Assembly: GCA_964236165.1 (NCBI GenBank)
Contig: CAXSDU010000001.1
Span: forward strand, 92,523 to 156,522
From: an uncultured Parafilimonas sp.
Lineage (GTDB): Bacteria > Bacteroidota > Bacteroidia > Chitinophagales > Chitinophagaceae
Direction of reading: 5' to 3'
DNA: 64,000 nt
The notes beneath the pieces are model-generated. The model worked only from the letters and a program-made list of their open reading frames with translations, searched no databases and had not been told where the DNA came from. The position numbers and the translations under genes were made by a program. This document shows, piece by piece, positions 45,326 through 59,114 of the stretch. Within the stretch, counting starts at the first letter, position 1. Each line of letters begins with the position of its first letter.

Positions 45326-46939
45326 TTATAAAATGATGTTTTGTACAAGATCACTTTTGCCGGGATGATCTGTGTTGTAATGTAAGCCGCGGCTTTCTTT
45401 TCTAAATTCTGCACCTTTTACAATAAGATAGGCAACAGTAATAAGGTTCCTTAGCTCACAAAGTTGCGGCGATATTTTTGTTGATTTATACAAAACCTCT
45501 GTTTCTTCAAACAAAAGATCAAGCCTTTTCATAGCACGTTCTAAACGCACATCATTTCTTACAATGCCAACATAATCGCTCATTGCCTGTTGCAATTCTT
45601 TTACACTTTGTGTTATCAATATCATTTCTTTTGGTTCAGATGTGCCTTGTGCATTCCAGTCGGGTATTGTGTTCCAAACATTTTCTCCAAAAGAAGAAGT
45701 TTGTAAATTCTCCATTTTTTCAATTGTATCTAAGTAAGCGCGGTGACCAAACACCATTGCTTCCAACAAACTATTGCTTGCCAAACGATTTGCTCCGTGT
45801 AAACCAGTGCTTGAACATTCGCCGCAGGCATATAAATTTTGTATTGAGCTATGTGCATATTCATCTGTTTTTATTCCGCCGCAACTATAATGCGCAGCGG
45901 GCGCAACAGGAATCATTTTTATTGTAACATCAATACCAATACTTAAACATTTTTCATAAATATTCGGGAAGTGATGAACAAATTTTTCTTTATCCATTTG
46001 CCTGCAATCAAGATAAACATGTTCTGTTCCGTTACGCTTCATTTCATTATCAATTGCTCTTGCAACAATATCGCGTGGTGCAAGATCTTTTCGCTCATCA
46101 TATTTTTCCATAAAAGCTTCATCATCTTTATTACGCAATATGCCGCCATCACCACGAACAGCTTCTGTAATTAAAAAAGACGGAGAAATACCAGGCTCGT
46201 ATAAAGCCGTTGGATGGAATTGTATGAATTCCATATTCTCTATTTTTCCTTTTGCGCGGTAAATCATAGCAATACCATCACCTGTTGCAATTTTAGGATT
46301 TGTAGTTGTGCGATATACCTGCCCGCAACCACCGGAAGCAATTAAAGTAACTGGCGATAAAATTTTTTCAATATGATTATTTAAATGATTTAAAACATAT
46401 ACGCCGAAACATGTAATATCCTGTGTTGATTTTGTTACGAGATATCCGAGATGATGCTGCGTAATAATATCAACCACAAAACAATGATTAATGAATTTTA
46501 TGTTTGGCAGTTTTTTAAGTTCTTTTAATAAAGCACGTTCCATTTCCTTGCCCGTTACATCTTTATGATGAAGAATACGGTTTTCGCTATGTCCGCCTTC
46601 TCTGCCTAAAGTATAATCTCCGCTTTCATTTTTATCAAACTCTGCTCCGTATTCAATAATTTCTTTTATGCGTTCGGGACCTTCTTTCACTACAATTTCA
46701 ACAATAGGTTCGTTGCATAAACCATCGCCGGCGATTAAAGTATCTTCTATATGTTTTTCAAAACTGTCATTGGCATCCCAAACACCTGCCACGCCACCTT
46801 GCGCATATTTTGTATTTGTTTCATCGGCAGTTGTTTTAGTAACAATCAATATTTGTTTTTTTGGAAATGCCTTGGCCGTTTTTATTGCGTATGTTAAACC
46901 GGCAACACCGGAGCCAATTACTAAAAAATCTGTTTGCAT
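45326..46939 (-). CDS. nadB: L-aspartate oxidase
   Basis: IGSGVAGL, YAQGGV, REGGHS..RILH, EFIQFHPT, TEAVRGDG, HYSCGG, GLHGANRLASNSLLE, ESRGLHY. Confidence 0.96.
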   Translation of the reverse strand: MQTDFLVIGSGVAGLTYAIKTAKAFPKKQILIVTKTTADETNTKYAQGGVAGVWDANDSFEKHIEDTLIAGDGLCNEPIVEIVVKEGPERIKEIIEYGAEFDKNESGDYTLGREGGHSENRILHHKDVTGKEMERALLKELKKLPNIKFINHCFVVDIITQHHLGYLVTKSTQDITCFGVYVLNHLNNHIEKILSPVTLIASGGCGQVYRTTTNPKIATGDGIAMIYRAKGKIENMEFIQFHPTALYEPGISPSFLITEAVRGDGGILRNKDDEAFMEKYDERKDLAPRDIVARAIDNEMKRNGTEHVYLDCRQMDKEKFVHHFPNIYEKCLSIGIDVTIKMIPVAPAAHYSCGGIKTDEYAHSSIQNLYACGECSSTGLHGANRLASNSLLEAMVFGHRAYLDTIEKMENLQTSSFGENVWNTIPDWNAQGTSEPKEMILITQSVKELQQAMSDYVGIVRNDVRLERAMKRLDLLFEETEVLYKSTKISPQLCELRNLITVAYLIVKGAEFRKESRGLHYNTDHPGKSDLVQNIIL

Positions 46940-47037
46940 ATTGCAAAAGTAAAAGGTTAATATTGATTGGAGCCGGAATGAGGCTGCTTATAATTTGCAA
47001 CGTAACAATTACGTTATTTGTCTTTATTTGTACAACT

Positions 47038-49119
47038 ATGCCAGGGAAAATTTTTGCAATTTTTTTGCTGCTGCTTTTTTTTAGTATTGAAAGCTGGAGC
47101 CAGGCATGTACAACACTAGGTCAAACACCGGAAACTGCATTTCCTGTTTGTGGCACCAGTGTGTTTCAACAACAAACAGTTCCGCAGTGTTCAAATGGTG
47201 TTGTGCCTGCATCTATCTGCGGAGGATATCCTGACACAAATCCATTTTGGTATCAATTTACCTGTTTTCAATCAGGAACGCTTGGGTTTATCATTACACC
47301 AAATAATCTGAATGATGATTATGACTGGGAAGTGTTTGATATTACTGGTCATGATCCAGGTGAAGTTTATACAAATTCAAATTTATTTTTAGTAGCAAAT
47401 TGGTCAGGAAATTCATCATCGGAAAGTTCCCGTGGATATACAGGAGTAACGGGTACATCTGCCAGCGGCAAAAACAGAATTGAATGCGGAACAAATCCCG
47501 AGGAATTAGGTGGGGGTCCGCCTTATTCTGACGCCCCAACGTTTAGCAACATGCCTGATATAATTCAGGGGCATATATATCTTTTATTGATTAGCCATTT
47601 TTCAGGAAATAATCAAAGCGGTTATGGACTTTCATTTAATAGCGGAAGCGCAGTTATAACAGATACAACAAAACCTGCTTTGCAGAGTGCGGTTGCAAGT
47701 TGCAATGGACAAAGCATTTATCTTAAGCTGAATAAAAAAATGAAATGCAGCAGCGTTGCTGTAAATGGAAGTGATTTTATCATCTCTCCAAATATTGTAA
47801 AAACGGTGTCTGCGAAATCTGCAAATTGTACAGATGGATTTGATATGGATTCTGTAATGATTAATCTTGATCAGCCATTATCTCCGGGCAATTATCAGCT
47901 TGTAATACAAAACGGAAACGACAACAATACGTTGGTTGATAATTGCGGCAATACAATTCCTGAATTAGACAGTATTCCTTTTATTGTTTATCCGTTGCAA
48001 CCAACACCATTTGATAGTATAATACCAGTAAAATGTTCGCCCAATATTCTGCAATTTTATTTTAGAAATGCAATGCAATGCAATTCCGTTGCTGCTGATG
48101 GAAGTGATTTTGTTATAACAGGTACTCCTGCTATTTCTGTTATAAACGCACACGGCGATGGCTGTAATTCAGATGGCGTTTCGCGTATTATTGATGTTGA
48201 ATTAAACAAAACTATTTTAGATGCAGGCTCATATAATATCACTTTGCAAAGAGGAAGTGATGGCAATACATTAATTGATGAATGCGCGCAGGAAACGCCG
48301 GCTGGTTCAACCATTGCATTTTCAACTGCAGATACTGTTTCGGCAGATTTTGCGTACAGGGTTGGTTTGGGTTGTACATATGATACGTTACTGTATGCAC
48401 ATGATGGAAAAGATCAAGTAAATCAATGGAACTGGACTTTTGATGTAGATGGAATAAGTATTACAGAAGATTCGCTTTTTTTATTCAATGATTATGGAAG
48501 TAAACATATTCTGCTTGTAGCAAGTAACGGTGTTTGTTCTGATTCTGCATCAGCCGATATTCTTTTAGATAATCAGTTAGAAGCCCGTTTTGCAATGGCG
48601 CCTTCAGCAAATTTATGCCCTGAAGATCTTGCGGTTTATACTGATTCAAGCATTGGAAAAATTGTAAGCTGGTATTGGACATTTGGTGATGGCACTACAA
48701 GCACATTTCAAAATCCGCCGGCAAAAAAATATGCTTCAGTAAGCGAGCGTGATGGAAGGTTTTATCCTGTTGCATTAATTGTAAAAAATGATATTAATTG
48801 TTTCGATACATCGCAAATAAAAATTCGGGTTTTATATAATTGCTACATTACAGTACCTACTGCTTTTACGCCAAACGGTGATGGGTTAAACGATTTCTTA
48901 TATCCCCTCAATGCATATAAAGCAGATAATCTTGAATTCAGGATATATAACCGCTACGGGCAAATGGTTTTTGAAACAACTGACTGGACAAGAAAATGGG
49001 ATGGAAAAATAAATGGGAAACCACAGGCATCCGGCACTTTTGTTTGGATGTTGTCTTACATTGATCATGATTCAGGCAAAAAAATATTCTTAAAGGGTAC
49101 AAGTGTTTTAATAAGATAG
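47038..49119 (+). CDS. T9SS-secreted surface protein with Ig-like repeats, PKD domain and type B (gliding motility-associated) CTD
   Basis: Signal peptide from ATG 47038; two CxSVAxxGSDF repeats; WYWTFGDG; C-terminal VPTAFTPNGDGLND...IYNRYG...WDG...G.FVW...KG...LIR. Confidence 0.88.
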   Translation: MPGKIFAIFLLLLFFSIESWSQACTTLGQTPETAFPVCGTSVFQQQTVPQCSNGVVPASICGGYPDTNPFWYQFTCFQSGTLGFIITPNNLNDDYDWEVFDITGHDPGEVYTNSNLFLVANWSGNSSSESSRGYTGVTGTSASGKNRIECGTNPEELGGGPPYSDAPTFSNMPDIIQGHIYLLLISHFSGNNQSGYGLSFNSGSAVITDTTKPALQSAVASCNGQSIYLKLNKKMKCSSVAVNGSDFIISPNIVKTVSAKSANCTDGFDMDSVMINLDQPLSPGNYQLVIQNGNDNNTLVDNCGNTIPELDSIPFIVYPLQPTPFDSIIPVKCSPNILQFYFRNAMQCNSVAADGSDFVITGTPAISVINAHGDGCNSDGVSRIIDVELNKTILDAGSYNITLQRGSDGNTLIDECAQETPAGSTIAFSTADTVSADFAYRVGLGCTYDTLLYAHDGKDQVNQWNWTFDVDGISITEDSLFLFNDYGSKHILLVASNGVCSDSASADILLDNQLEARFAMAPSANLCPEDLAVYTDSSIGKIVSWYWTFGDGTTSTFQNPPAKKYASVSERDGRFYPVALIVKNDINCFDTSQIKIRVLYNCYITVPTAFTPNGDGLNDFLYPLNAYKADNLEFRIYNRYGQMVFETTDWTRKWDGKINGKPQASGTFVWMLSYIDHDSGKKIFLKGTSVLIR

Positions 49120-49170: not shown

Positions 49171-49707
49171 ATGGAAGAAGTAATACTGGTAGACGAGTTT
49201 GATAACGAGCAGGGAAAAATGGAAAAAATGCAGGTACATCGCGAGGGCAGGTTGCACAGGGCTTTCAGCATTTTTATTTTTAATAATAAAGGCGAAATGC
49301 TGTTGCAGCAAAGAGCTTTAAACAAATATCACAGCGCAGGTTTATGGACGAATGCCTGCTGCAGCCATCCAAAACCAAATGAAGCAACGGAAATTGCTGC
49401 AATAAGAAGATTGAAAGAAGAGCTTGGATTTGCAACACAGCTTGAAAAAATTTTTGATTTTACTTATACAACAAGTTTTGATAATGGTTTAACGGAAAAC
49501 GAATTTGACCATGTTTTTTCAGGAATTTATGATGGCGAAATCAATATAAATAAAGCAGAAGTGCAAGATATTTGTTACAGAGCTATTGATGAAATTGAAT
49601 CTGCTATACAATCACACCCACAAAAATTTACAGCATGGTTTAAGATCGCATTTCCGCTTGTAAAAAAATCTATGGCTGAAGTAAATGCAAAAGTTCAAAC
49701 AGCATAA
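49171..49707 (+). CDS. idi: Isopentenyl-diphosphate delta-isomerase, type 1
   Basis: LHRAFSIFIFN, LLQQRA..KYH..GLWTNACCSHP, RRLKEELG, ENEFDHVF. Confidence 0.95.
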   Translation: MEEVILVDEFDNEQGKMEKMQVHREGRLHRAFSIFIFNNKGEMLLQQRALNKYHSAGLWTNACCSHPKPNEATEIAAIRRLKEELGFATQLEKIFDFTYTTSFDNGLTENEFDHVFSGIYDGEININKAEVQDICYRAIDEIESAIQSHPQKFTAWFKIAFPLVKKSMAEVNAKVQTA

Positions 49708-51212
49708 TGCCTGAAAAATTTAAAGCATATATTATTGGTTCGGGCATTGCAGGCATTGCAACTGCTATACGTTTGGCGGTTCAGAATTTTGATGTTATTG
49801 TTTTTGAAAAAAATAGTTATGCCGGCGGAAAAATAAATGTGCTTAAAAAAGATGGTTACACTTTCGATACAGGTCCAAGTTTATTTGTACAGCCGGAAAA
49901 TATTGAAGCGTTATTTACACTTGCAGAAGAAGATATTCATGATTATTTTAAGTATAAACCATTAAGCATTGGTTGCAAATATTTTTATGAAGATGGAACA
50001 ATCATAAATGCTTATACAGATAAAGAAAAATTTGCTGAAGAACTTTACAAAAAAACCGGCGAACCCAAACAAAATACTATTTCCTATTTAGAAGAATCAG
50101 GAAATATTTATAATCATATTGGCAATATTTTTCTTAATTATTCATTGCATAAAAGAGCTACATTAAAAAGAGCAAAAATTGCAACTGCGTTATTTAATAC
50201 AAAACACTCTTATCTTTTTTCAACGCTTCATAAAACAAACACAAAAAGATTTATAAAGCCGCACACGATTCAATTGTTTAATCGCTACGCAACTTACAGC
50301 GGCAGTAATCCGTACCAGGCGCCGGGTATGCTAAAATTAATTCCGCATATTGAATATAACGATGGTATATTTTATCCTGAAGGCGGAATGATTGCAATTA
50401 TAAAAGCGTTGTATAAGCTTGCTGAAAAAAAAGGTGTTCAGTTTAAATTTAATACTGAAGTTGAAAGAATAATTGAGTTTGAAAGCGAAGCAAAAGGAAT
50501 TGTTATTAATGAAAAAAATTTGTTTGCTGATGTAGTAATTAGCAACACTGATGTTTACTTCACTTATTTAAAAATGCTAAACGATGAACGCTTTGCAAAA
50601 AAAATTTTGAAGCAGGAACGCAGCAGCAGCGCAATAATTTTTTATTGGGGAATTAAAAAAGGATTTTCGCAACTTGAATTACATAATATCTTTTTCAGCA
50701 AAAATTATAAAGCTGAATTCGATTCCATTTTTAAGCTGAAAAATTTATATAATGATCCAACCATCTATATAAATATAACTTCTAAATGTGAGCCTGGCAT
50801 TCATGCACCTGAAGGGAAAGAAAATTGGTTTGTAATGGTAAATATTGCTGCAGACAGTAAAATGAGTGATGACAGTTTTATAAAAACATGCAGGCAAAAT
50901 GTTTTATTAAAACTCAGCCGCATATTAAATGAAGACATAGAAAGCCTGATTGAAACAGAAGACATATTGCATCCAAAAATGATTGAAGAACTTACATCAA
51001 GTTATCTTGGCGCATTATACGGAACAAGTTCAAACACTAAACGAGCTGCATTTTTTCGCCACCCGAATTTTTCAAAAGATATAAACCGATTATATTTTGC
51101 AGGCGGCAGTGTACATCCGGGCGGCGGAATTCCTTTATGTTTAAGATCAGCAAAAATTACTTCAGATATAATTGCTGAAGACAGCCGCAAATGGCAGCAT
51201 CATCATGAATAA
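49707..51212 (+). CDS. crtD: Carotenoid desaturase, most likely 1-hydroxycarotenoid 3,4-desaturase CrtD
   Basis: IIGSGIAG, FDTGPS, RYATYSGS, GALYGTSSN, GGSVHPGGGIPLCL; adjacent to a CruF-like hydratase; CrtI not fully excluded. Confidence 0.7.
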   Translation: MPEKFKAYIIGSGIAGIATAIRLAVQNFDVIVFEKNSYAGGKINVLKKDGYTFDTGPSLFVQPENIEALFTLAEEDIHDYFKYKPLSIGCKYFYEDGTIINAYTDKEKFAEELYKKTGEPKQNTISYLEESGNIYNHIGNIFLNYSLHKRATLKRAKIATALFNTKHSYLFSTLHKTNTKRFIKPHTIQLFNRYATYSGSNPYQAPGMLKLIPHIEYNDGIFYPEGGMIAIIKALYKLAEKKGVQFKFNTEVERIIEFESEAKGIVINEKNLFADVVISNTDVYFTYLKMLNDERFAKKILKQERSSSAIIFYWGIKKGFSQLELHNIFFSKNYKAEFDSIFKLKNLYNDPTIYINITSKCEPGIHAPEGKENWFVMVNIAADSKMSDDSFIKTCRQNVLLKLSRILNEDIESLIETEDILHPKMIEELTSSYLGALYGTSSNTKRAAFFRHPNFSKDINRLYFAGGSVHPGGGIPLCLRSAKITSDIIAEDSRKWQHHHE

Positions 51213-51894
51213 AAAAAATCTTGTAAATAATGTTGCGCTTTTTATTGCGTTGTTATTTCATATAGCTGGTGCAATTGGTATTTTATTTACGCCTTATAAA
51301 AACTGGTTCATTCAAAACACGCCGCTTAATCTTTTAATAATGGCGGCGTTGCTCATCATCACTCAAAAAGAAAAGAACATTTATTTTTTTATTTTTTTGC
51401 TGATAACAATTGTGGTTGGCTTTGTTGTTGAATATACCGGCACAAATACCGCTTTAATTTTTGGTCATTATACTTATGGAAATATTTTAGGCTTGAAAAT
51501 TTTTGGATTGCCTTTAATTATTGCGGTTAATTGGTTTATTGTAATTTATTGCGCAGGTGTTACAACACAGTTGTATGAAAACAAAATGTTGAAACGTATT
51601 AATGAAAAAGGCATGAGCATAAATGCCGGTGTGCAAACAATTTCTTTTGTTATAGATGCTTCTTTGCTTGCAGTATTATTTGACTGGATGATTGAACCCG
51701 TTGCAGATAAACTTGGTTATTGGAAATGGGAAGGCGGCGATATTCCGTTTTATAATTATGTATGCTGGTTTATTATTAGTGCTTTATTATTTGCACTTTT
51801 TCAACAATTGCCGTTTACGAAACGCAACATATTCGCTGTACATTTGTTAATCATACAACTATTGTTTTTTTTAGTATTAAGAACTTTTTTATGA
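51205..51894 (+). CDS. Carotenoid biosynthesis membrane protein (DUF422 / CruF-like 1,2-hydratase)
   Basis: EYTGTNT..IFGHYTYG..LG...GLPLII, DWMIEP......YW.W..G.IP.YNYVCW; start ATG 51205. Confidence 0.8.
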   Translation: MNKKNLVNNVALFIALLFHIAGAIGILFTPYKNWFIQNTPLNLLIMAALLIITQKEKNIYFFIFLLITIVVGFVVEYTGTNTALIFGHYTYGNILGLKIFGLPLIIAVNWFIVIYCAGVTTQLYENKMLKRINEKGMSINAGVQTISFVIDASLLAVLFDWMIEPVADKLGYWKWEGGDIPFYNYVCWFIISALLFALFQQLPFTKRNIFAVHLLIIQLLFFLVLRTFL

Positions 51895-52385
51895 ACTGGA
51901 TTTTATATCCGCTTATCACTTTCACAACTTTTTTAATTATGGAAGGCATTACATGGCTTACGCATAAATATGTAATGCATGGCTTTTTATGGTATTTGCA
52001 TGAAGATCATCATAATCCTAAGCATCATGTGTTTGAAAAGAACGATGCATTTTTTGTAATTTTTGCTATACCAAGCTGGCTTTGTATAATGTTAGGAAGC
52101 ATGAATGAAGCATGGTGGGTTGTAAGCATTGGCGCTGGCATTGCTATGTATGGTTTTGCTTATTTTTTAGTGCATGATATAATCATTCATCAACGTTTTA
52201 AATTACTTACAAAAAGTAATAACCAATATGTAAGAGCTATTCGCTGGGCGCATAAAATGCATCACCGCCATATGAATAAAGAAGATGGCGAAAGCTTTGG
52301 AATGCTCTTCATTGCAAAAAAATATTGGGAGAAAATTAAGCGTGATGAAAGATTAAAAAAATCATTCACACCGATATCGCAATAA
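51891..52385 (+). CDS. crtZ: Beta-carotene 3-hydroxylase
   Basis: Histidine boxes HKYVMHG, HEDHH, FEKND, VHD..IHQRF, HKMHH, SFG. Confidence 0.88.
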   Translation: MNWILYPLITFTTFLIMEGITWLTHKYVMHGFLWYLHEDHHNPKHHVFEKNDAFFVIFAIPSWLCIMLGSMNEAWWVVSIGAGIAMYGFAYFLVHDIIIHQRFKLLTKSNNQYVRAIRWAHKMHHRHMNKEDGESFGMLFIAKKYWEKIKRDERLKKSFTPISQ

Positions 52386-53531
52386 CTACTCTTTTATTTT
52401 ATTTCCGAAGAATGATACGCCTAAACCAAGCAATGCGATTATTGCGAATGAGATTTGCAAACCTGCTAGCTGGGAAATAAACCCAATCAATGGCGGACCA
52501 ATTAAAAATCCTACAAAACTTATGGTTGAAACTGCTGCGAGCGCTAAACCCGGCGACATTGTTTTTGATCTTCCTGCCATTGCATAGACCATCGGCACAA
52601 CACACGAAGCACCAAAACCAACCAGTAAACATCCGGCAATTGCGGAATATAAGTAAGGAAGTAATATCACTATAGATAACCCTGATGCAATTAAAATTCC
52701 GCTAAACTGCAAAATGCGCTTTGCACCAAATTTTGTTATCAGCTTATCACCTAAAAATCTTCCTGTTGCCATTGTGCCTGCAAAAGCAACATAACCTAAA
52801 GTTTTATATGCAGCAGCCGAATGAATTATATTTTGAAAATATACACCACTCCAGTCTGCCATTGCACCTTCACAAATCATACTGCAAAAAGCAATAAAAC
52901 CAAGTAGCAAAACTGCTTTATCAGGTTTTACAAATATGGGTTGCGCTGATTTTTTATAACCATCATCAGGCAAAGTATTCTTATAAGAAACCAATACCAT
53001 AATAAGTGCAGCTAGTGCAATAATTATAAAATGCACGAAAGGAGGAATGGCTGCTGCTACGAAAAAGTTTCCGACAGCCGCGCCGCAAAAACCTGCAAGA
53101 CTCCATAAACCGTGAAACGATGCCATTATAGATCTTCCGTATAAAGATTCAACGCCAATCGCTTGTGTATTCATTGCAATATTTACAAGGTTAGCCCAAA
53201 TTCCAAAAAGAAATAGTATAAGAACCAGTTGCCATACCGTTGCAGTAACACCAAGCAGAATTAATGTTAGCGGAAAAAATATTGCTGATGCAATAACCAA
53301 TTGCCTGCTGCCAAATTTTGATACGAGCCAGCCTGATAATGGTAAGCTTACAATTTGACCAACAGGTATTGCAAATAAAATACCGCCAAGCGCGGCATCA
53401 CTTAAATGCAACGCGTTTTTGATATCTGGAATTCTGCTTGCCCACGTTGCTACAACAAGACCTGCTATAAAAAAGAATATACTTACAGCAATTCTGTGCA
53501 CACGTGTGTTTGCAGATAATGAAATGTTCAT
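52386..53531 (-). CDS. MFS transporter (YbjJ-like)
   Basis: WASRIPDIK, DIAMN-like NIAMNTQA, MASFHGLWSLAG, EGAMADWS, GRFLGD, GPPLIG; about 12 TM. Confidence 0.88.
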   Translation of the reverse strand: MNISLSANTRVHRIAVSIFFFIAGLVVATWASRIPDIKNALHLSDAALGGILFAIPVGQIVSLPLSGWLVSKFGSRQLVIASAIFFPLTLILLGVTATVWQLVLILFLFGIWANLVNIAMNTQAIGVESLYGRSIMASFHGLWSLAGFCGAAVGNFFVAAAIPPFVHFIIIALAALIMVLVSYKNTLPDDGYKKSAQPIFVKPDKAVLLLGFIAFCSMICEGAMADWSGVYFQNIIHSAAAYKTLGYVAFAGTMATGRFLGDKLITKFGAKRILQFSGILIASGLSIVILLPYLYSAIAGCLLVGFGASCVVPMVYAMAGRSKTMSPGLALAAVSTISFVGFLIGPPLIGFISQLAGLQISFAIIALLGLGVSFFGNKIKE

Positions 53532-53558
53532 TTAAAATACTTTTTAAAATACTTTATA

Positions 53559-54050
53559 TTAAGCGGCTTTTACCTGAGGAATACTGGTTAATCTTCCTTT
53601 CTTTAGCTCCGGTTCATCTTTTATTTGAGCAGCCTTAGCAGGCTTTTTTACAAAATATTCTTTGCTCATTAATGGTGAATTAAATATAAAGTCTGCAGTA
53701 GTTTTATTAAAAGCAATAATTACATTATTATCCTTTACACTTTCCATTAATATCTCAAAATCTTTATGCTGAAATTCATCTGAAGTAAAGAATACCAGTA
53801 TATCAATTTTATTTTCAGCAATCATATCAGCCAGCATTCTGTAACCGCCTAACGGACCACTGATTAATTTGTTTACTGCTTTATTTAATGTGCCTTCTAA
53901 AATTTTTATAGCAGAACCTGTTGCAATAATCTCATGCTTTAACAATAAATCTCTATTGAAATAAGACCATTCAATTAGTTTTGAATTTTTATTATCACTT
54001 GCTACAAAAGCAATTGTTTTAATTTTTTTCATTGTTCTGTTGTTCATCAT
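53559..54050 (-). CDS. Methylglyoxal-synthase-like protein with degenerate active site
   Basis: IAFVASD, IATG, SGPLGG, IDILVFF, TADF..NSPLM align with MgsA but catalytic residues are replaced. Confidence 0.8.
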   Translation of the reverse strand: MMNNRTMKKIKTIAFVASDNKNSKLIEWSYFNRDLLLKHEIIATGSAIKILEGTLNKAVNKLISGPLGGYRMLADMIAENKIDILVFFTSDEFQHKDFEILMESVKDNNVIIAFNKTTADFIFNSPLMSKEYFVKKPAKAAQIKDEPELKKGRLTSIPQVKAA

Positions 54051-54125: not shown

Positions 54126-54146
54126 AATGTGTATAACGTACACATT
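54126..54146. promoter_or_regulatory. Perfect inverted repeat, candidate operator
   Basis: AATGTGTA-taacg-TACACATT about 75 nt upstream of the MgsA-like gene. Confidence 0.45.
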
Positions 54147-54313
54147 CAATACTTATTTTATAGAAATGTAACCTTTTAAAATTTTAGACAATGCTAATCG
54201 CTGTTAGCCTTTAAGCAGTAATTCATTGCAAATCATTGATAATAACTTACTGTTAAGTTAGTATTATTTTGGTTTTATTTATCAATGACAGTTTAGCAGC
54301 ACAAGTTTTAATA

Positions 54314-55141
54314 CTATTTTTTACCCTGAAAAAATTCGTAATGAGTTAAAATGTTTTTTAAGATCGATGTGCGGATGTTTTTTATATCCATATTATGTGG
54401 TCCTTCAATTTGTAAAACAAAAAAGTATGGATGCAGATTTTCTTCTTCCCAACCTACAATCCAACCGATTGATTTTCCATCTTCTTTAAATCCCCAACCT
54501 GTTTTATAACTCAGCTTATAATTTGCATTGCTTTGCTGCAGCATTACTCTTTTTACAATATCCTGTACACGTTTTTGAAAAGGTAACTGGTCGAAATATA
54601 ATTTTTTAATAAGACCTAATTGTTCATCAGCAGTAATCTTAATATTATTATTGAGCCAGAAAGTATCAATGTCATTATTAATAGCTGCACGACCATATTT
54701 AGATGCATAACCCAAACTATCAAGCCAGCGTTGCATGGTATCTTTTCCAATTCGCCGCGCAACTTCCTGGTAATATGGAACGGCAGAAACTTTAAACGCC
54801 TGTTCCATTGTAAGATCTTTGTTCCAATCAGGGTTTGAACGCACAATACCATCCCAGGGAATTACCATATTTTCATTTGTAATAATACCGGTTTGCAACC
54901 CTATAAGTGAATTAACAATTTTAAAAGTTGATGCAGGAAGATAAGCGCTATCAGTAAACCTGTGCAAATTATAAATAGTGAATTGTGCCTGCCCGTTATT
55001 AAACATTCCAAATGTTCCGGTAACATGATATTCATCAAAATATTTTTGTAAACTATCGTCTGATACAACGTTGTTTGATGTGCAGGAAAATAAATAAAAA
55101 GTAAAAATCAAAAAATAACTAATCGAATTATATTTAAACAT
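54314..55141 (-). CDS. Class D (OXA-type) beta-lactamase / penicillin-binding transpeptidase, lipoprotein
   Basis: PASTFK (SxxK), SAV (SxV), FWL, YKTG, GWIVGW; lipobox LFSC. Confidence 0.85.
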   Translation of the reverse strand: MFKYNSISYFLIFTFYLFSCTSNNVVSDDSLQKYFDEYHVTGTFGMFNNGQAQFTIYNLHRFTDSAYLPASTFKIVNSLIGLQTGIITNENMVIPWDGIVRSNPDWNKDLTMEQAFKVSAVPYYQEVARRIGKDTMQRWLDSLGYASKYGRAAINNDIDTFWLNNNIKITADEQLGLIKKLYFDQLPFQKRVQDIVKRVMLQQSNANYKLSYKTGWGFKEDGKSIGWIVGWEEENLHPYFFVLQIEGPHNMDIKNIRTSILKNILTHYEFFQGKK

Positions 55142-56345: not shown

Positions 56346-56531
56346 GGCTATGTTTGTTTGGCGCAAACCTAATACAATTTAAAAAAATAGCTGTTAAATA
56401 AGCATGCAATAAATGCCTAACGTTAAGCATTAGGTACAATAAATTTGCAGGTTTACAGTTAAAGAATAATAACTGTAAATTTGAAAAATAGCAGGCATCT
56501 TTGTTTATATTTAAGTTACAAAGACCTTTAC

Positions 56532-59114
56532 TTGAAAACTTTAAACAAGCATTTTTATTTCTTTTTATTTTTTTTATTACTGCCTGGTTATTTTGTTGTG
56601 TATGGACAAATAACCGCAGATTTTTCTGCGTTATCAGCCACTGGATGCACGCCATTAAATGTTCAGTTTAAAGATCTTTCTTCCGGTAACCCTACACAAT
56701 GGGTTTGGGATTTTGGAAATGGTACAAGTTCTAATTTGCAAAATCCTGTTGCTACATATATAACCGGGGGAACATATACAGTTAGGTTAATTGTAAAAAA
56801 TGCATCATCAAAAAACTATATTGAAAAGAAAAATTTAATTATTGTATCTGCAACACCGGATGTTGAATTTACAGCAAGCAATAATACAGGCTGTTTACCC
56901 TTAATTGTTTCGTTTGATAACACTACAAATTTATTTGGTAATAGTATTAAAAGCTGGCTATGGGATTTTGGTGATGGAAATACTTCAAACCAGCAAGCAC
57001 CTTCTCATACTTATACTGCAAGAGGAGTATATGATGTTTCACTTACGGTAGAAAATGTAAGCGGTTGCACAAATTCCCTTTCGCTAAAAAAATTAATAAG
57101 GGCTGGTAATAAGCCGAATACTGCTTCCTTTAAAGCTACTCCTCTTGATGGATGCGCTTCCTCACTTCGAAATTTTACAGATTTATCAACAGGAACTATA
57201 AATTCCTGGCAATGGGATTTCGGCGATGGCGGAACAAGTGATGTTAAAAACCCTTCTTATCATTACATAGATACCGGTTTTTTTTCAGTGAATCTTATTG
57301 TAGGTGATAACGGATGTTCAATTTCTACGCAGATCAATAATTATGTTCACATTATTGGCCCAATCGCTGATATACATAAAAGTGCTGATTGTTCAAATCC
57401 TTATAACATATCTTTCTTTACACCTTTTGGAAAGGCAGATAGTTGGTTTTGGGATTTTGGGGACGGTAAAACTTCTAATTCTAAAAATGAAATACATACT
57501 TATAGCAAAACTGGAAAATATGTTGTAAAATTAAATATCAGCGGAGGTGCTTGTGTTGATTCTGCAAACGATACTATTTATGTTGTTAACCAAACACCAA
57601 CTTATAATATTTTGCCTTCCGCTCCCAGTTATTGTAAGAATGATACACTTGAATTTACTGCAAATAATTATGATAGTGCAGGAACAAAATATTTTGCATG
57701 GAGTTTCGATGGAGGTTTAACACTTACAAAGTATAGAGCAAAAGATACAATTCAAAATGTTTATTTAACTACAGGCATTTATCCTGCACCAATACTTTAT
57801 ATATCAAATAAAGAAGGGTGCACCGATACAATACAAAAAAACCAAATAACTATTACGGGTGCCGTAGCAGGTTTTTCTAATTCATTTCCCACCTGTATTG
57901 GAAATGCTATAACATTTTCTGATAAATCTATTCTATATAAAAATTCACCTATTAAACAATGGGAATGGAATTATGGAGATGGTGATACTGTAACTACATC
58001 AGCCTCTTTTGTAAATTACACTTATCCTTTTCCCGGATTATATACTACGCTGCTAAAAATTACAGATGCTGATGGATGCACTGATACCATATCTCATGAG
58101 ATTAATATTGCCGATACACCTACTATTGATGCAGGGAACGACATGTTTACTTGCGCAGGTAAATCTGTTACATTGCAACCTTCAGGTGGTGTAAATTATA
58201 TGTGGGATAGTAATTCTTCTCTTAGCTGTACCAATTGTAATAATCCTATAGCTACGCCATTAGATACAACAGTTTTTTATGTTAGTGGAAGAAACGCTGC
58301 CGGCTGCGCTGCGCGTGATTCAATTCAAATAAACGTACAACAAAAACAAGAGATTACAGTACAGCCTTCGTTCGGTACAATTTGCAAGGGCAATTCAATA
58401 CAGCTCTCCGCTTCAGGCTCTGATTCTTATTCATGGCAGCCAACAGGCAGTCTTAATAATTCTGATATATCTAATCCTTTGGCAACGCCACAAAGTAATA
58501 CAACTTATATAGTAAGCGGCTCAGATAAAAATGGCTGCTTTACAAGTACGGCAAATATAGATGTTGCTGTAAAACCCCAACCTGAAATAAATATTACAGA
58601 TAGCGCTGTAACGCTTCAGCCTGGCCAGATGTATCAACTAAAAACTACATATAGTTCTGATGTTGTAAAATGGACATGGCAGCCTGCGCAGTGGTTAACT
58701 GATGCTTCTATACCAAACCCGGTTACGCAACCACAAGGAAATATTACTTACAAGGTAACAGCAGAAACAGAAAGCGGATGTATTGACTCAGACAAGGTAG
58801 TTATAACTGTTGTATGTAATAATTCCATTCTTTTCATACCTAATACGTTCTCACCAAATAAAGATGGTATGAATGATTATTTTTACCCGCGCAGCAGTGG
58901 GCAGGTTAAAATAAAATCACTAAAGATTTTTAATAGATGGGGGCAGGAAGTGTATAAAAAAACTGATTTTTTTACCAACGATCAGAACGCCGGATGGGAT
59001 GGAAAATACAATGGTAATTTTGAGCAGGCGGATGCATATGTTTATGTGTTATTGGTGAGTTGTTCAAACGGCAGTTTTTTCAGAAACAGCGGATCAATTA
59101 CTTTAATAAGATAA
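56532..59114 (+). CDS. T9SS-secreted multi-PKD-domain protein with type B CTD
   Basis: About six W.WDFGDG-type PKD repeats; C-terminal FIPNTFSPNKDGMND...IFNRWG..GWDG...YVY...G..TLIR; TTG 56532 preferred as track start overlaps TAAATTTG promoter (56476-56483). Confidence 0.88.
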   Translation: MKTLNKHFYFFLFFLLLPGYFVVYGQITADFSALSATGCTPLNVQFKDLSSGNPTQWVWDFGNGTSSNLQNPVATYITGGTYTVRLIVKNASSKNYIEKKNLIIVSATPDVEFTASNNTGCLPLIVSFDNTTNLFGNSIKSWLWDFGDGNTSNQQAPSHTYTARGVYDVSLTVENVSGCTNSLSLKKLIRAGNKPNTASFKATPLDGCASSLRNFTDLSTGTINSWQWDFGDGGTSDVKNPSYHYIDTGFFSVNLIVGDNGCSISTQINNYVHIIGPIADIHKSADCSNPYNISFFTPFGKADSWFWDFGDGKTSNSKNEIHTYSKTGKYVVKLNISGGACVDSANDTIYVVNQTPTYNILPSAPSYCKNDTLEFTANNYDSAGTKYFAWSFDGGLTLTKYRAKDTIQNVYLTTGIYPAPILYISNKEGCTDTIQKNQITITGAVAGFSNSFPTCIGNAITFSDKSILYKNSPIKQWEWNYGDGDTVTTSASFVNYTYPFPGLYTTLLKITDADGCTDTISHEINIADTPTIDAGNDMFTCAGKSVTLQPSGGVNYMWDSNSSLSCTNCNNPIATPLDTTVFYVSGRNAAGCAARDSIQINVQQKQEITVQPSFGTICKGNSIQLSASGSDSYSWQPTGSLNNSDISNPLATPQSNTTYIVSGSDKNGCFTSTANIDVAVKPQPEINITDSAVTLQPGQMYQLKTTYSSDVVKWTWQPAQWLTDASIPNPVTQPQGNITYKVTAETESGCIDSDKVVITVVCNNSILFIPNTFSPNKDGMNDYFYPRSSGQVKIKSLKIFNRWGQEVYKKTDFFTNDQNAGWDGKYNGNFEQADAYVYVLLVSCSNGSFFRNSGSITLIR

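Follow-up and report, generated by a model that had tools for sequence, protein, structure and literature searches.

A gene in a 64,000-nucleotide stretch of DNA from an uncultured Parafilimonas sp. (assembly GCA_964236165.1, contig CAXSDU010000001.1, positions 92,523 to 156,522; hereafter the window) encodes a protein of 163 amino acids related to methylglyoxal synthase (MGS; MgsA) and stands directly before the gene of a major facilitator superfamily (MFS) permease. We are confident that this MGS-like protein is a conserved non-catalytic derivative of MgsA tied to this transport module. The balance of evidence leans slightly towards a fuller explanation, in which it would be an MgsA-derived pseudoenzyme kept by selection in the MFS unit, where it would act as a non-catalytic accessory or regulatory partner.

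Fold, active site and ancestry of the MGS-like protein

The MGS-like gene occupies positions 53559..54050 on the minus strand. Its product passed the NCBIfam MgsA equivalog model NF003559 (98.9 bits, E 2e-28; cut-off 84), and narrowly passed Pfam MGS (26.6 against a threshold of 24.1 bits). It failed TIGR00160, a more demanding model of MgsA, with 75.1 bits where 146.9 are required. The best solved relatives were all methylglyoxal synthases (PDB 1vmd, E 5.7e-24; Escherichia coli 1b93, E 8e-17). An AlphaFold2 model with an input alignment of 48 sequences reached a mean predicted local distance difference test (pLDDT) score of 82.8, with a confident core and a tail (residues 141-159) that fell below 50 and is predicted to be disordered. 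Compared with MgsA structures, the model gave template modelling (TM) scores of 0.74-0.77 at a root-mean-square deviation of ~2.2 Å; the CarB allosteric domain and PurH ranked after MgsA (CarB/CPS1 E 2e-5, TM ~0.53). Homology to MgsA is well beyond chance, and the MGS alpha/beta fold is retained, with its core in residues 1-135.

The active site is where the protein departs from the enzyme. A first-pass annotation of this DNA had listed substitutions in the MgsA motifs, and each one was borne out by alignments to E. coli and Thermotoga maritima MgsA and to 30 canonical MgsA from Chitinophagaceae. In the window protein, AHD has become ASD (His19 to Ser), HKK has become NKN (Lys23 to Asn), TGTT has become TGSA (Thr47 to Ser, Thr48 to Ala) and SGPLGGD has become SGPLGGY, which replaces the catalytic base Asp71 with Tyr70. 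FFWDP reads FFTS with a three-residue deletion, and PHDPD reads QHKD (in the segment DEFQHKD). The SGPLGG loop, Thr44-Gly45-Ser46 and Lys21 are still present in the window clade; Thr45 and Ser65-Gly66 (MgsA numbering) are kept there and lost in orthologues.

Column statistics over 30 canonical and 48 variant sequences extended the comparison to the family. Residues conserved at 93-100% in the canonical enzymes, namely His19, Thr45, Thr47, Ser65, Pro67, Leu68, Gln72, Gln73, Trp90, Asp91, Pro92, His98, Asp99, Asp101, Lys103, Arg107 and the C-terminal Asp142-Tyr143...Tyr146...Arg149, fell to ~17-46% for the commonest variant residue, with the Ser65, Pro67 and Leu68 columns at 17-31%. The Asp71 column holds Asp in 100% of the canonical sequences and Tyr in 60% of the variants, where the other residues seen include F, H, N, C, G, I and D. 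The catalytic residues, at 100% in the canonical set, fall to 19-60% in the variants. In orthologues paired with the same MFS, Lys23, Thr45/47/48, Ser65, Pro67 and the remaining residues of the old pocket are unconstrained, and the SGPLGGD loop is replaced by, for example, ESGKPGEY, EEIKLSGY or DGAAAAN. Across the variant family, constraint is gone from the whole dihydroxyacetone phosphate (DHAP)/phosphate active site and from the C-terminal DY..Y..R segment. In E. coli MgsA, as reported by Saadat and Harrison (1998-2000) and by Marks (2004), the residues that lost constraint serve as catalytic base and acid or bind phosphate, and the C-terminal segment includes an arginine reaching the neighbouring subunit.

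Other positions have come under constraint in the variants. Two family motifs, LIEWSYFN (residues 25-32 of the window protein) on helix alpha1 and ILEGTLN (50-56) on helix alpha2, contain the newly invariant or near-invariant Ile26, Glu27, Ser29 and Tyr30 on alpha1 (Asn32 was conserved already) and Leu51, Gly53 and Thr54 at the end of alpha2, with Asn56 less strict; Asn115 belongs to the same group. At two of the positions constrained anew, 31 and 54, the top residue in canonical MgsA reaches only 23% and 37%. A newly acquired interaction surface would be expected to show just this, fresh constraint at sites left variable in canonical MgsA. From the topology of the fold, alpha1 and alpha2 should be neighbours on the same face of the sheet, with their C-terminal halves away from the active-site edge. 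The simplest reading of these columns is that the old pocket would be in disuse, perhaps filled by the bulky Tyr70, and a new surface under selection.

The tail (residues 136-163) is basic and disordered and ends in ...VKAA. It had been described at first pass as rich in Lys and Ala, and this holds from residue ~136, with nine Lys or Arg among the last 42 residues. A C-terminal hydrophobic-Lys-(Ala/Val)-x motif (VKAA, LAKAS, LKVNTIN and similar) was found in 36 of 37 MFS-linked copies versus 1 of 11 unlinked ones. The tail is net basic and the core mildly acidic (median pI 6.2); nucleic-acid binding through a systematically basic core was considered and rejected, the core not being basic.

The variant belongs to a family of its own. 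Among 5.8 billion proteins searched there were 98 homologues, with identities from 84% down to 36%, and LIEWSYFN, ILEGTLN and the degraded active site are common to nearly all of them. When 1.84 billion cluster representatives were searched with a profile, 67 proteins matched at E ≤ 1e-30; among the top 150 matches, ~51 were clearly of the variant type and ~75 canonical, and the family size comes to some 50-70 clusters at 50% identity. The 46 loci recovered from a scan of GTDB species genomes are all from Chitinophagaceae/Chitinophagales and mostly from metagenome-assembled genomes. A cultured carrier is Parafilimonas terrae DSM 28286 (locus L057), of the same genus as the window genome. In a maximum-likelihood tree with the 30 canonical Chitinophagaceae MgsA, the variants formed one clade (SH-aLRT 100) on much longer branches. 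The canonical MgsA of Chitinophagaceae already contain LIEWAxYN and LE(D/E)xLD, which fits an origin of the variant by duplication inside the lineage. The variant is a paralogue family restricted to Chitinophagaceae and appears to derive from that bacterial family's own methylglyoxal synthase.

All complete copies at related loci are intact open reading frames. Pairwise ratios of non-synonymous to synonymous substitution rates (dN/dS, NG86) among variants were 0.03-0.27, and ~0.10-0.15 in the window clade at dS 0.8-1.5, where the core gave 0.06-0.13 and the tail 0.10-0.28. Intact copies together with dN/dS of ~0.1 refute recent decay, and with these numerous orthologues the earlier proposal of an intact, repurposed pseudoenzyme stands. 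The MGS-like protein evolves faster than its MFS (~45% versus 65% identity at the same divergence). Catalytic residues gone, purifying selection and newly constrained positions together mark the protein, as far as its sequence can tell, as a pseudoenzyme. In full-text literature searches, neither a non-catalytic MgsA family nor MgsA of Chitinophagaceae was found described, and as far as the searched literature shows, no non-catalytic methylglyoxal synthase paralogue family has been described before.

The variant also occurs on its own. Searches with hidden Markov models and tblastn, using canonical queries, found no canonical mgsA in the window genome (96.7% complete), whose sole MGS-family gene is the variant. 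Canonical mgsA was likewise absent from two other genomes of the genus Parafilimonas, including the 100%-complete P. terrae, and from three further variant-bearing genomes; in a sample of 201 genomes of the bacterial family, both genes occurred together in 6 of ~13 variant-bearing genomes. The absence from the window genome and genus excludes the earlier idea that the protein is a dominant-negative subunit of a true MgsA hexamer, an idea refuted for this genome, and means that the variant works without canonical MgsA.

The MFS partner and its carbohydrate context

The permease gene (52386..53531, minus strand; 381 amino acids) matched Pfam MFS_1 at 85.8 bits. No informative NCBIfam subfamily was found for it, only weak generic MFS matches (best TsgA, 2e-7), and PDB searches with the MFS alone and with an MFS profile returned no usable solved relative; monocarboxylate transporter 2 was matched, but weakly and locally. 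The 27-nucleotide spacer between the two genes (53532..53558, minus strand) holds a tandem 12-nucleotide copy (AAGTATTTTAAA, twice) and no terminator-like site was found in it; the spacers of the pair's closest relatives measure 12-18 nucleotides.

At 37 of the 46 loci, the next gene downstream, in the same orientation, is an orthologous MFS (58-89% identity). The pair is kept down to 37% protein identity and is present across several deep sub-clades of the tree; a different, YbfB-like MFS was found at three further loci. The first-pass annotation had linked the protein to the MFS gene, and the conservation of the pair upholds that link. It had also proposed a search for orthologues sharing both the linkage and the GGY substitution: the linkage holds at most loci, and GGY is kept in only about 60% of the members. 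The beta-lactamase, kbl and crtZ neighbours are common only to the five closest relatives. The conserved unit is the gene pair, not the neighbourhood. Conversely, in the 201-genome sample 8 of the 10 MFS copies with at least 60% identity were linked to an MGS-like gene (the window's own copy excluded), and MFS homologues at 40-57% identity were common elsewhere. Close MFS orthologues not linked to an MGS-like gene often stand in DeoR-MFS-MFS operons.

Related loci place the pair among regulated carbohydrate genes. A divergent LacI-family repressor was found at ~22 of them (54-64% identity between loci); in this LacI clade the canonical operator TTGTTTAA(A/T)CGTTTAAACAA, palindromic around a central CG, precedes a Bacteroidetes-type TAnnTTTG box. 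In some relatives the unit adjoins a DeoR regulator instead of LacI. At ~13 loci a gene of ~96 amino acids, here called SMALL, lies between LacI and the MGS-like gene (L070:7551-7841, L085:7593-7883, L032:5433-5726 and others). SMALL is a Gfo/Idh/MocA Rossmann domain that ends just before the catalytic EKP motif, its GxGxxG loop is degraded, and its dN/dS of ~0.1-0.3 denotes purifying selection; it is apparently a second pseudoenzyme fragment of the module. Its arrangements, with MGSL for the MGS-like gene, are LacI|SMALL-MGSL-(MFS), LacI|SMALL-MFS2 and DeoR-SMALL-MGSL. In genomes without an MGS-like gene, LacI orthologues face SMALL-MFS2, MFS2, or MFS with a GH63-like glycosidase. Neither the LacI orthologue nor SMALL was found in the window genome, whose sole MFS paralogue adjoins a GH5-like and a sugar-isomerase-like gene (both assigned by eye). 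The LacI and DeoR regulators and the glycosidase-type neighbours together place the module in carbohydrate uptake, and this context points to sugars as the substrate of the MFS.

Upstream elements and neighbouring genes

Upstream of the pair, 76-96 nucleotides before the start codon of the MGS-like gene, lies a perfect 8-5-8 palindrome, AATGTGTA-CGTTA-TACACATT (54126..54146, minus strand), which is operator-like. Immediately upstream of it is a promoter-like GGTTAC-N16-TATT box (54147..54173, minus strand). The GGTTAC box was present in every window-clade sequence and in all 11 sister-clade sequences compared. Most of these also carry the TGTGTA-N5-TACACA palindrome in intact or almost intact form, with variant arms in several sister-clade members. 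Conserved arms around a variable spacer are typical of the operator of a dimeric regulator. This palindrome stands in the window where the LacI operator stands at ~22 related loci. The window genome holds one exact copy, the one at the locus (0.05 expected). A regulon was not convincing: five sites with at most one mismatch were found genome-wide against 2.2 expected, and the motif was not enriched. One of the five, a near-copy of the palindrome (ATGTGTAATTATTACACTT), lies at ~35742 on contig C9, ~110 nucleotides upstream of a GH53-like galactanase lipoprotein gene, and may be a second target of the putative regulator of the palindrome. A scan for sigma-70 promoters was uninformative, with 13 sites against 11 expected.

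No riboswitch or known leader was matched in Rfam for the window region or four related loci. At seven loci (L033, L034, L065, L068, L072, L075 and L078), the ~400 nucleotides upstream contain a leader of ~230 nucleotides rich in UUGCC/CUGCC repeats, which follows the LacI operator and TAnnTTTG box; a terminator-like hairpin closes it, immediately ahead of the start codon. In the window's sister clade (L038, L066 and others) the leader forms another hairpin, GCAUCA...UGAUGC with a U-run. The leader hairpins of both clades may be attenuators.

Directly upstream of the pair is an intact homologue of class D (OXA-like) beta-lactamases (54314-55141, minus strand), with a lipoprotein-like N-terminus and the motifs STFK, SAV and KTG. 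It scored 239.9 bits against NF012161, slightly below the cut-off of 250, and adjoins the pair in the five closest relatives only. On the other side, a carotenoid gene cluster on the plus strand (49171-52385) converges on the MFS gene with zero intergenic bases. Its members are a gene of the Nudix/IDI type, a CrtI-like FAD oxidase, a carotenoid synthesis protein (PF04240) and a CrtZ-like His-motif hydroxylase for which no Pfam match was found. Two large secreted proteins, both on the plus strand (46861-49119 and 56481-59114), flank the region; each has PKD repeats and a CHU_C domain, a type IX secretion signal domain.

Possible functions and significance

That the protein regulates the transporter was one of the first-pass suggestions; it is the leading reading and is compatible with all the data. 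The MGS-like protein would be a non-catalytic accessory or regulatory partner of the sugar-transport module. It would make no methylglyoxal, and its old substrate pocket would be unused, probably filled by Tyr70. It would work by touching other proteins, both with the new alpha1/alpha2 surface and with the basic C-terminal tail, whose end is the conserved hydrophobic-Lys-Ala/Val motif. Points in favour of a direct partnership are the fixed gene order with its conserved pairing, the tail motif of the MFS-linked copies and the net basic charge of the tail on a mildly acidic core. We put forward this specific accessory or regulatory mechanism tentatively, at somewhat short of an even chance. A more detailed version is doubtful as it stands: the protein would be a new type of cytoplasmic subunit that gates or regulates MFS sugar permeases, together with SMALL in the relatives, docking via the LIEWSYFN/ILEGTLN surface and the basic tail. 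Made from a dead enzyme of the glycolytic bypass, it would be to an MFS what GlnK is to AmtB or SbtB to SbtA.

Several observations weigh against a role at the transporter. The MGS-like gene is kept at 7-9 loci without any adjacent MFS (as LacI-SMALL-MGSL alone), and MFS orthologues also function in genomes without an MGS-like gene, so the partnership is not obligatory. Linked and unlinked MFS are told apart by M120 and A225 alone, two probably intramembrane positions, so that no docking surface is visible on the transporter; on its cytoplasmic side, nothing specific to the linked copies was found. Loci without an adjacent MFS conserve the alpha1/alpha2 motifs just as well, which means that the surface must bind something more general, possibly the MGS-like protein itself; the grouping of these residues into one patch was deduced from fold topology, not from coordinates. 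The association of the tail motif with MFS linkage rests on 1-4 phylogenetically independent contrasts and is not significant, and the motif may be a remnant of the canonical YLKRKV C-terminus.

An alternative is that the protein is a neofunctionalised enzyme, with a new active site formed from E27, S29, Y30, E52, T54, N56 and N115 and acting on the cargo of the MFS. The newly invariant residues are indeed polar and of catalytic type, an enzyme with a transporter is the commonest type of conserved gene pair, and the loci are LacI/DeoR-controlled sugar loci with GH63-like hydrolases there in relatives. By fold topology, however, the new residues sit on the C-terminal halves of two helices, on the side opposite the ligand crevice, and the crevice where known MGS-fold proteins (MgsA, the CarB allosteric domain, PurH) bind their ligands is unconstrained here. 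No family-wide His/Cys/Asp/Lys constellation was seen, and the protein changes faster than its transporter. We consider this enzyme unlikely.

Less likely again is a regulator of gene expression, which would work with LacI, DeoR or the palindrome-binding factor as an anti- or co-repressor, or bind the leader RNA. The MGS-like gene does occupy the exact place of the DeoR regulator in MFS loci that lack it; LacI-SMALL-MGSL modules without a transporter exist, an orthologous LacI is associated across most clades, and terminator-like leader hairpins in two clades, UUGCC repeats in one and the basic tail would suit such a role. Yet the protein has no DNA- or RNA-binding domain and a mildly acidic core, the window genome lacks both the LacI orthologue and SMALL, and LacI orthologues are common in genomes without an MGS-like gene.

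The first-pass proposal of a phosphate or sugar-phosphate sensor, using a remnant of the DHAP/phosphate pocket, fared worse. MGS-fold allosteric domains bind phosphorylated ligands at that site, as known from CarB, and the window clade retains the loop and neighbouring residues named above. Orthologues with the same MFS have nonetheless lost those residues, and even the window protein no longer has Lys23 and His19; the unconserved phosphate pocket argues against this sensor, which we regard as very improbable. Scarcely credible is a working methylglyoxal synthase, a poison subunit of the canonical hexamer or a recently inactivated gene: the pass of NF003559, the database names of relatives and the co-occurrence with canonical mgsA in some genomes speak for it, and against it stand the absent and unconstrained Asp71, His98 and His19, the lack of canonical mgsA in the window genome and genus, and intact orthologues in an old and diverse family under purifying selection.

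Regulation or assistance of the transporter, the reading we prefer, was set beside known systems. With MgsA (EC 4.2.3.3; PDB 1b93, 1vmd, 6phe) the variant shares ancestry, fold (E 1e-17 to 1e-24; TM ~0.77) and the scaffold residues K11, I13-A14, W28, N32, L36, H39, A43, D83, F88, A113, T118-A119 and S125. Unlike MgsA, it has lost or released the catalytic, phosphate-binding and C-terminal DY..Y..R residues, has gained LIEWSYFN and ILEGTLN, has a basic tail of greater length, changes more rapidly, stands in a fixed operon with an MFS permease and fails TIGR00160. The CarB/CPS1 allosteric domains likewise have an MGS fold without MGS chemistry, but they are parts of an enzyme to which they are fused, and the crevice along the C-terminal edge of their sheet binds nucleotides, ornithine or N-acetylglutamate, whereas the variant is free-standing, has an unconstrained crevice and is far closer in sequence to MgsA. 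Crh is said to contact the N-terminal helices of Bacillus subtilis MgsA, in work by Dickmanns and co-workers from 2018. These helices correspond to the region most conserved in the variant and offer a precedent for partner binding; the Bacillus complex, however, regulates an active enzyme. No HPr-family gene (HPr/Crh) was found in the window genome, which excludes the Crh-type partner that the first-pass annotation had brought up.

Small soluble regulators encoded with a transporter include GlnK-AmtB and SbtB-SbtA (PII family) and TeaD-TeaABC (universal stress protein family); EIIA-Glc acts on LacY. The GlnK-AmtB/SbtB-SbtA/TeaD-TeaABC type, in which a small alpha/beta cytoplasmic protein is encoded in a conserved operon with a secondary transporter, serves as our working model. 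The variant is not homologous to the PII, USP or EIIA regulators, having the MGS fold. We know of no dedicated small soluble partner of the GlnK/SbtB/TeaD type for an MFS permease.

MgsA is usually treated as a uniform enzyme with a single function. What appears to be new is a pseudoenzyme family on the MGS fold; an MGS fold without MGS chemistry was already known. If the variant does control or assist the MFS, MFS permeases would have in it one of their rare dedicated soluble partners, and it would show cleanly how an enzyme scaffold can be put to new use once its pocket is entirely lost; the cultured carrier P. terrae DSM 28286 makes the question directly testable. For annotation, public records label members of the variant family 'methylglyoxal synthase', a name that is probably wrong. 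In the same bacterial family, the catalytically dead variants score 64-125 bits against NF003559 and canonical MgsA ~199-227 bits, so that the cut-off of 84 lets dead members in and leads to systematic misannotation of genomes from Chitinophagaceae. For Parafilimonas and its relatives, whose genomes in fact have no canonical mgsA, metabolic reconstructions built on these names would falsely include a methylglyoxal bypass.

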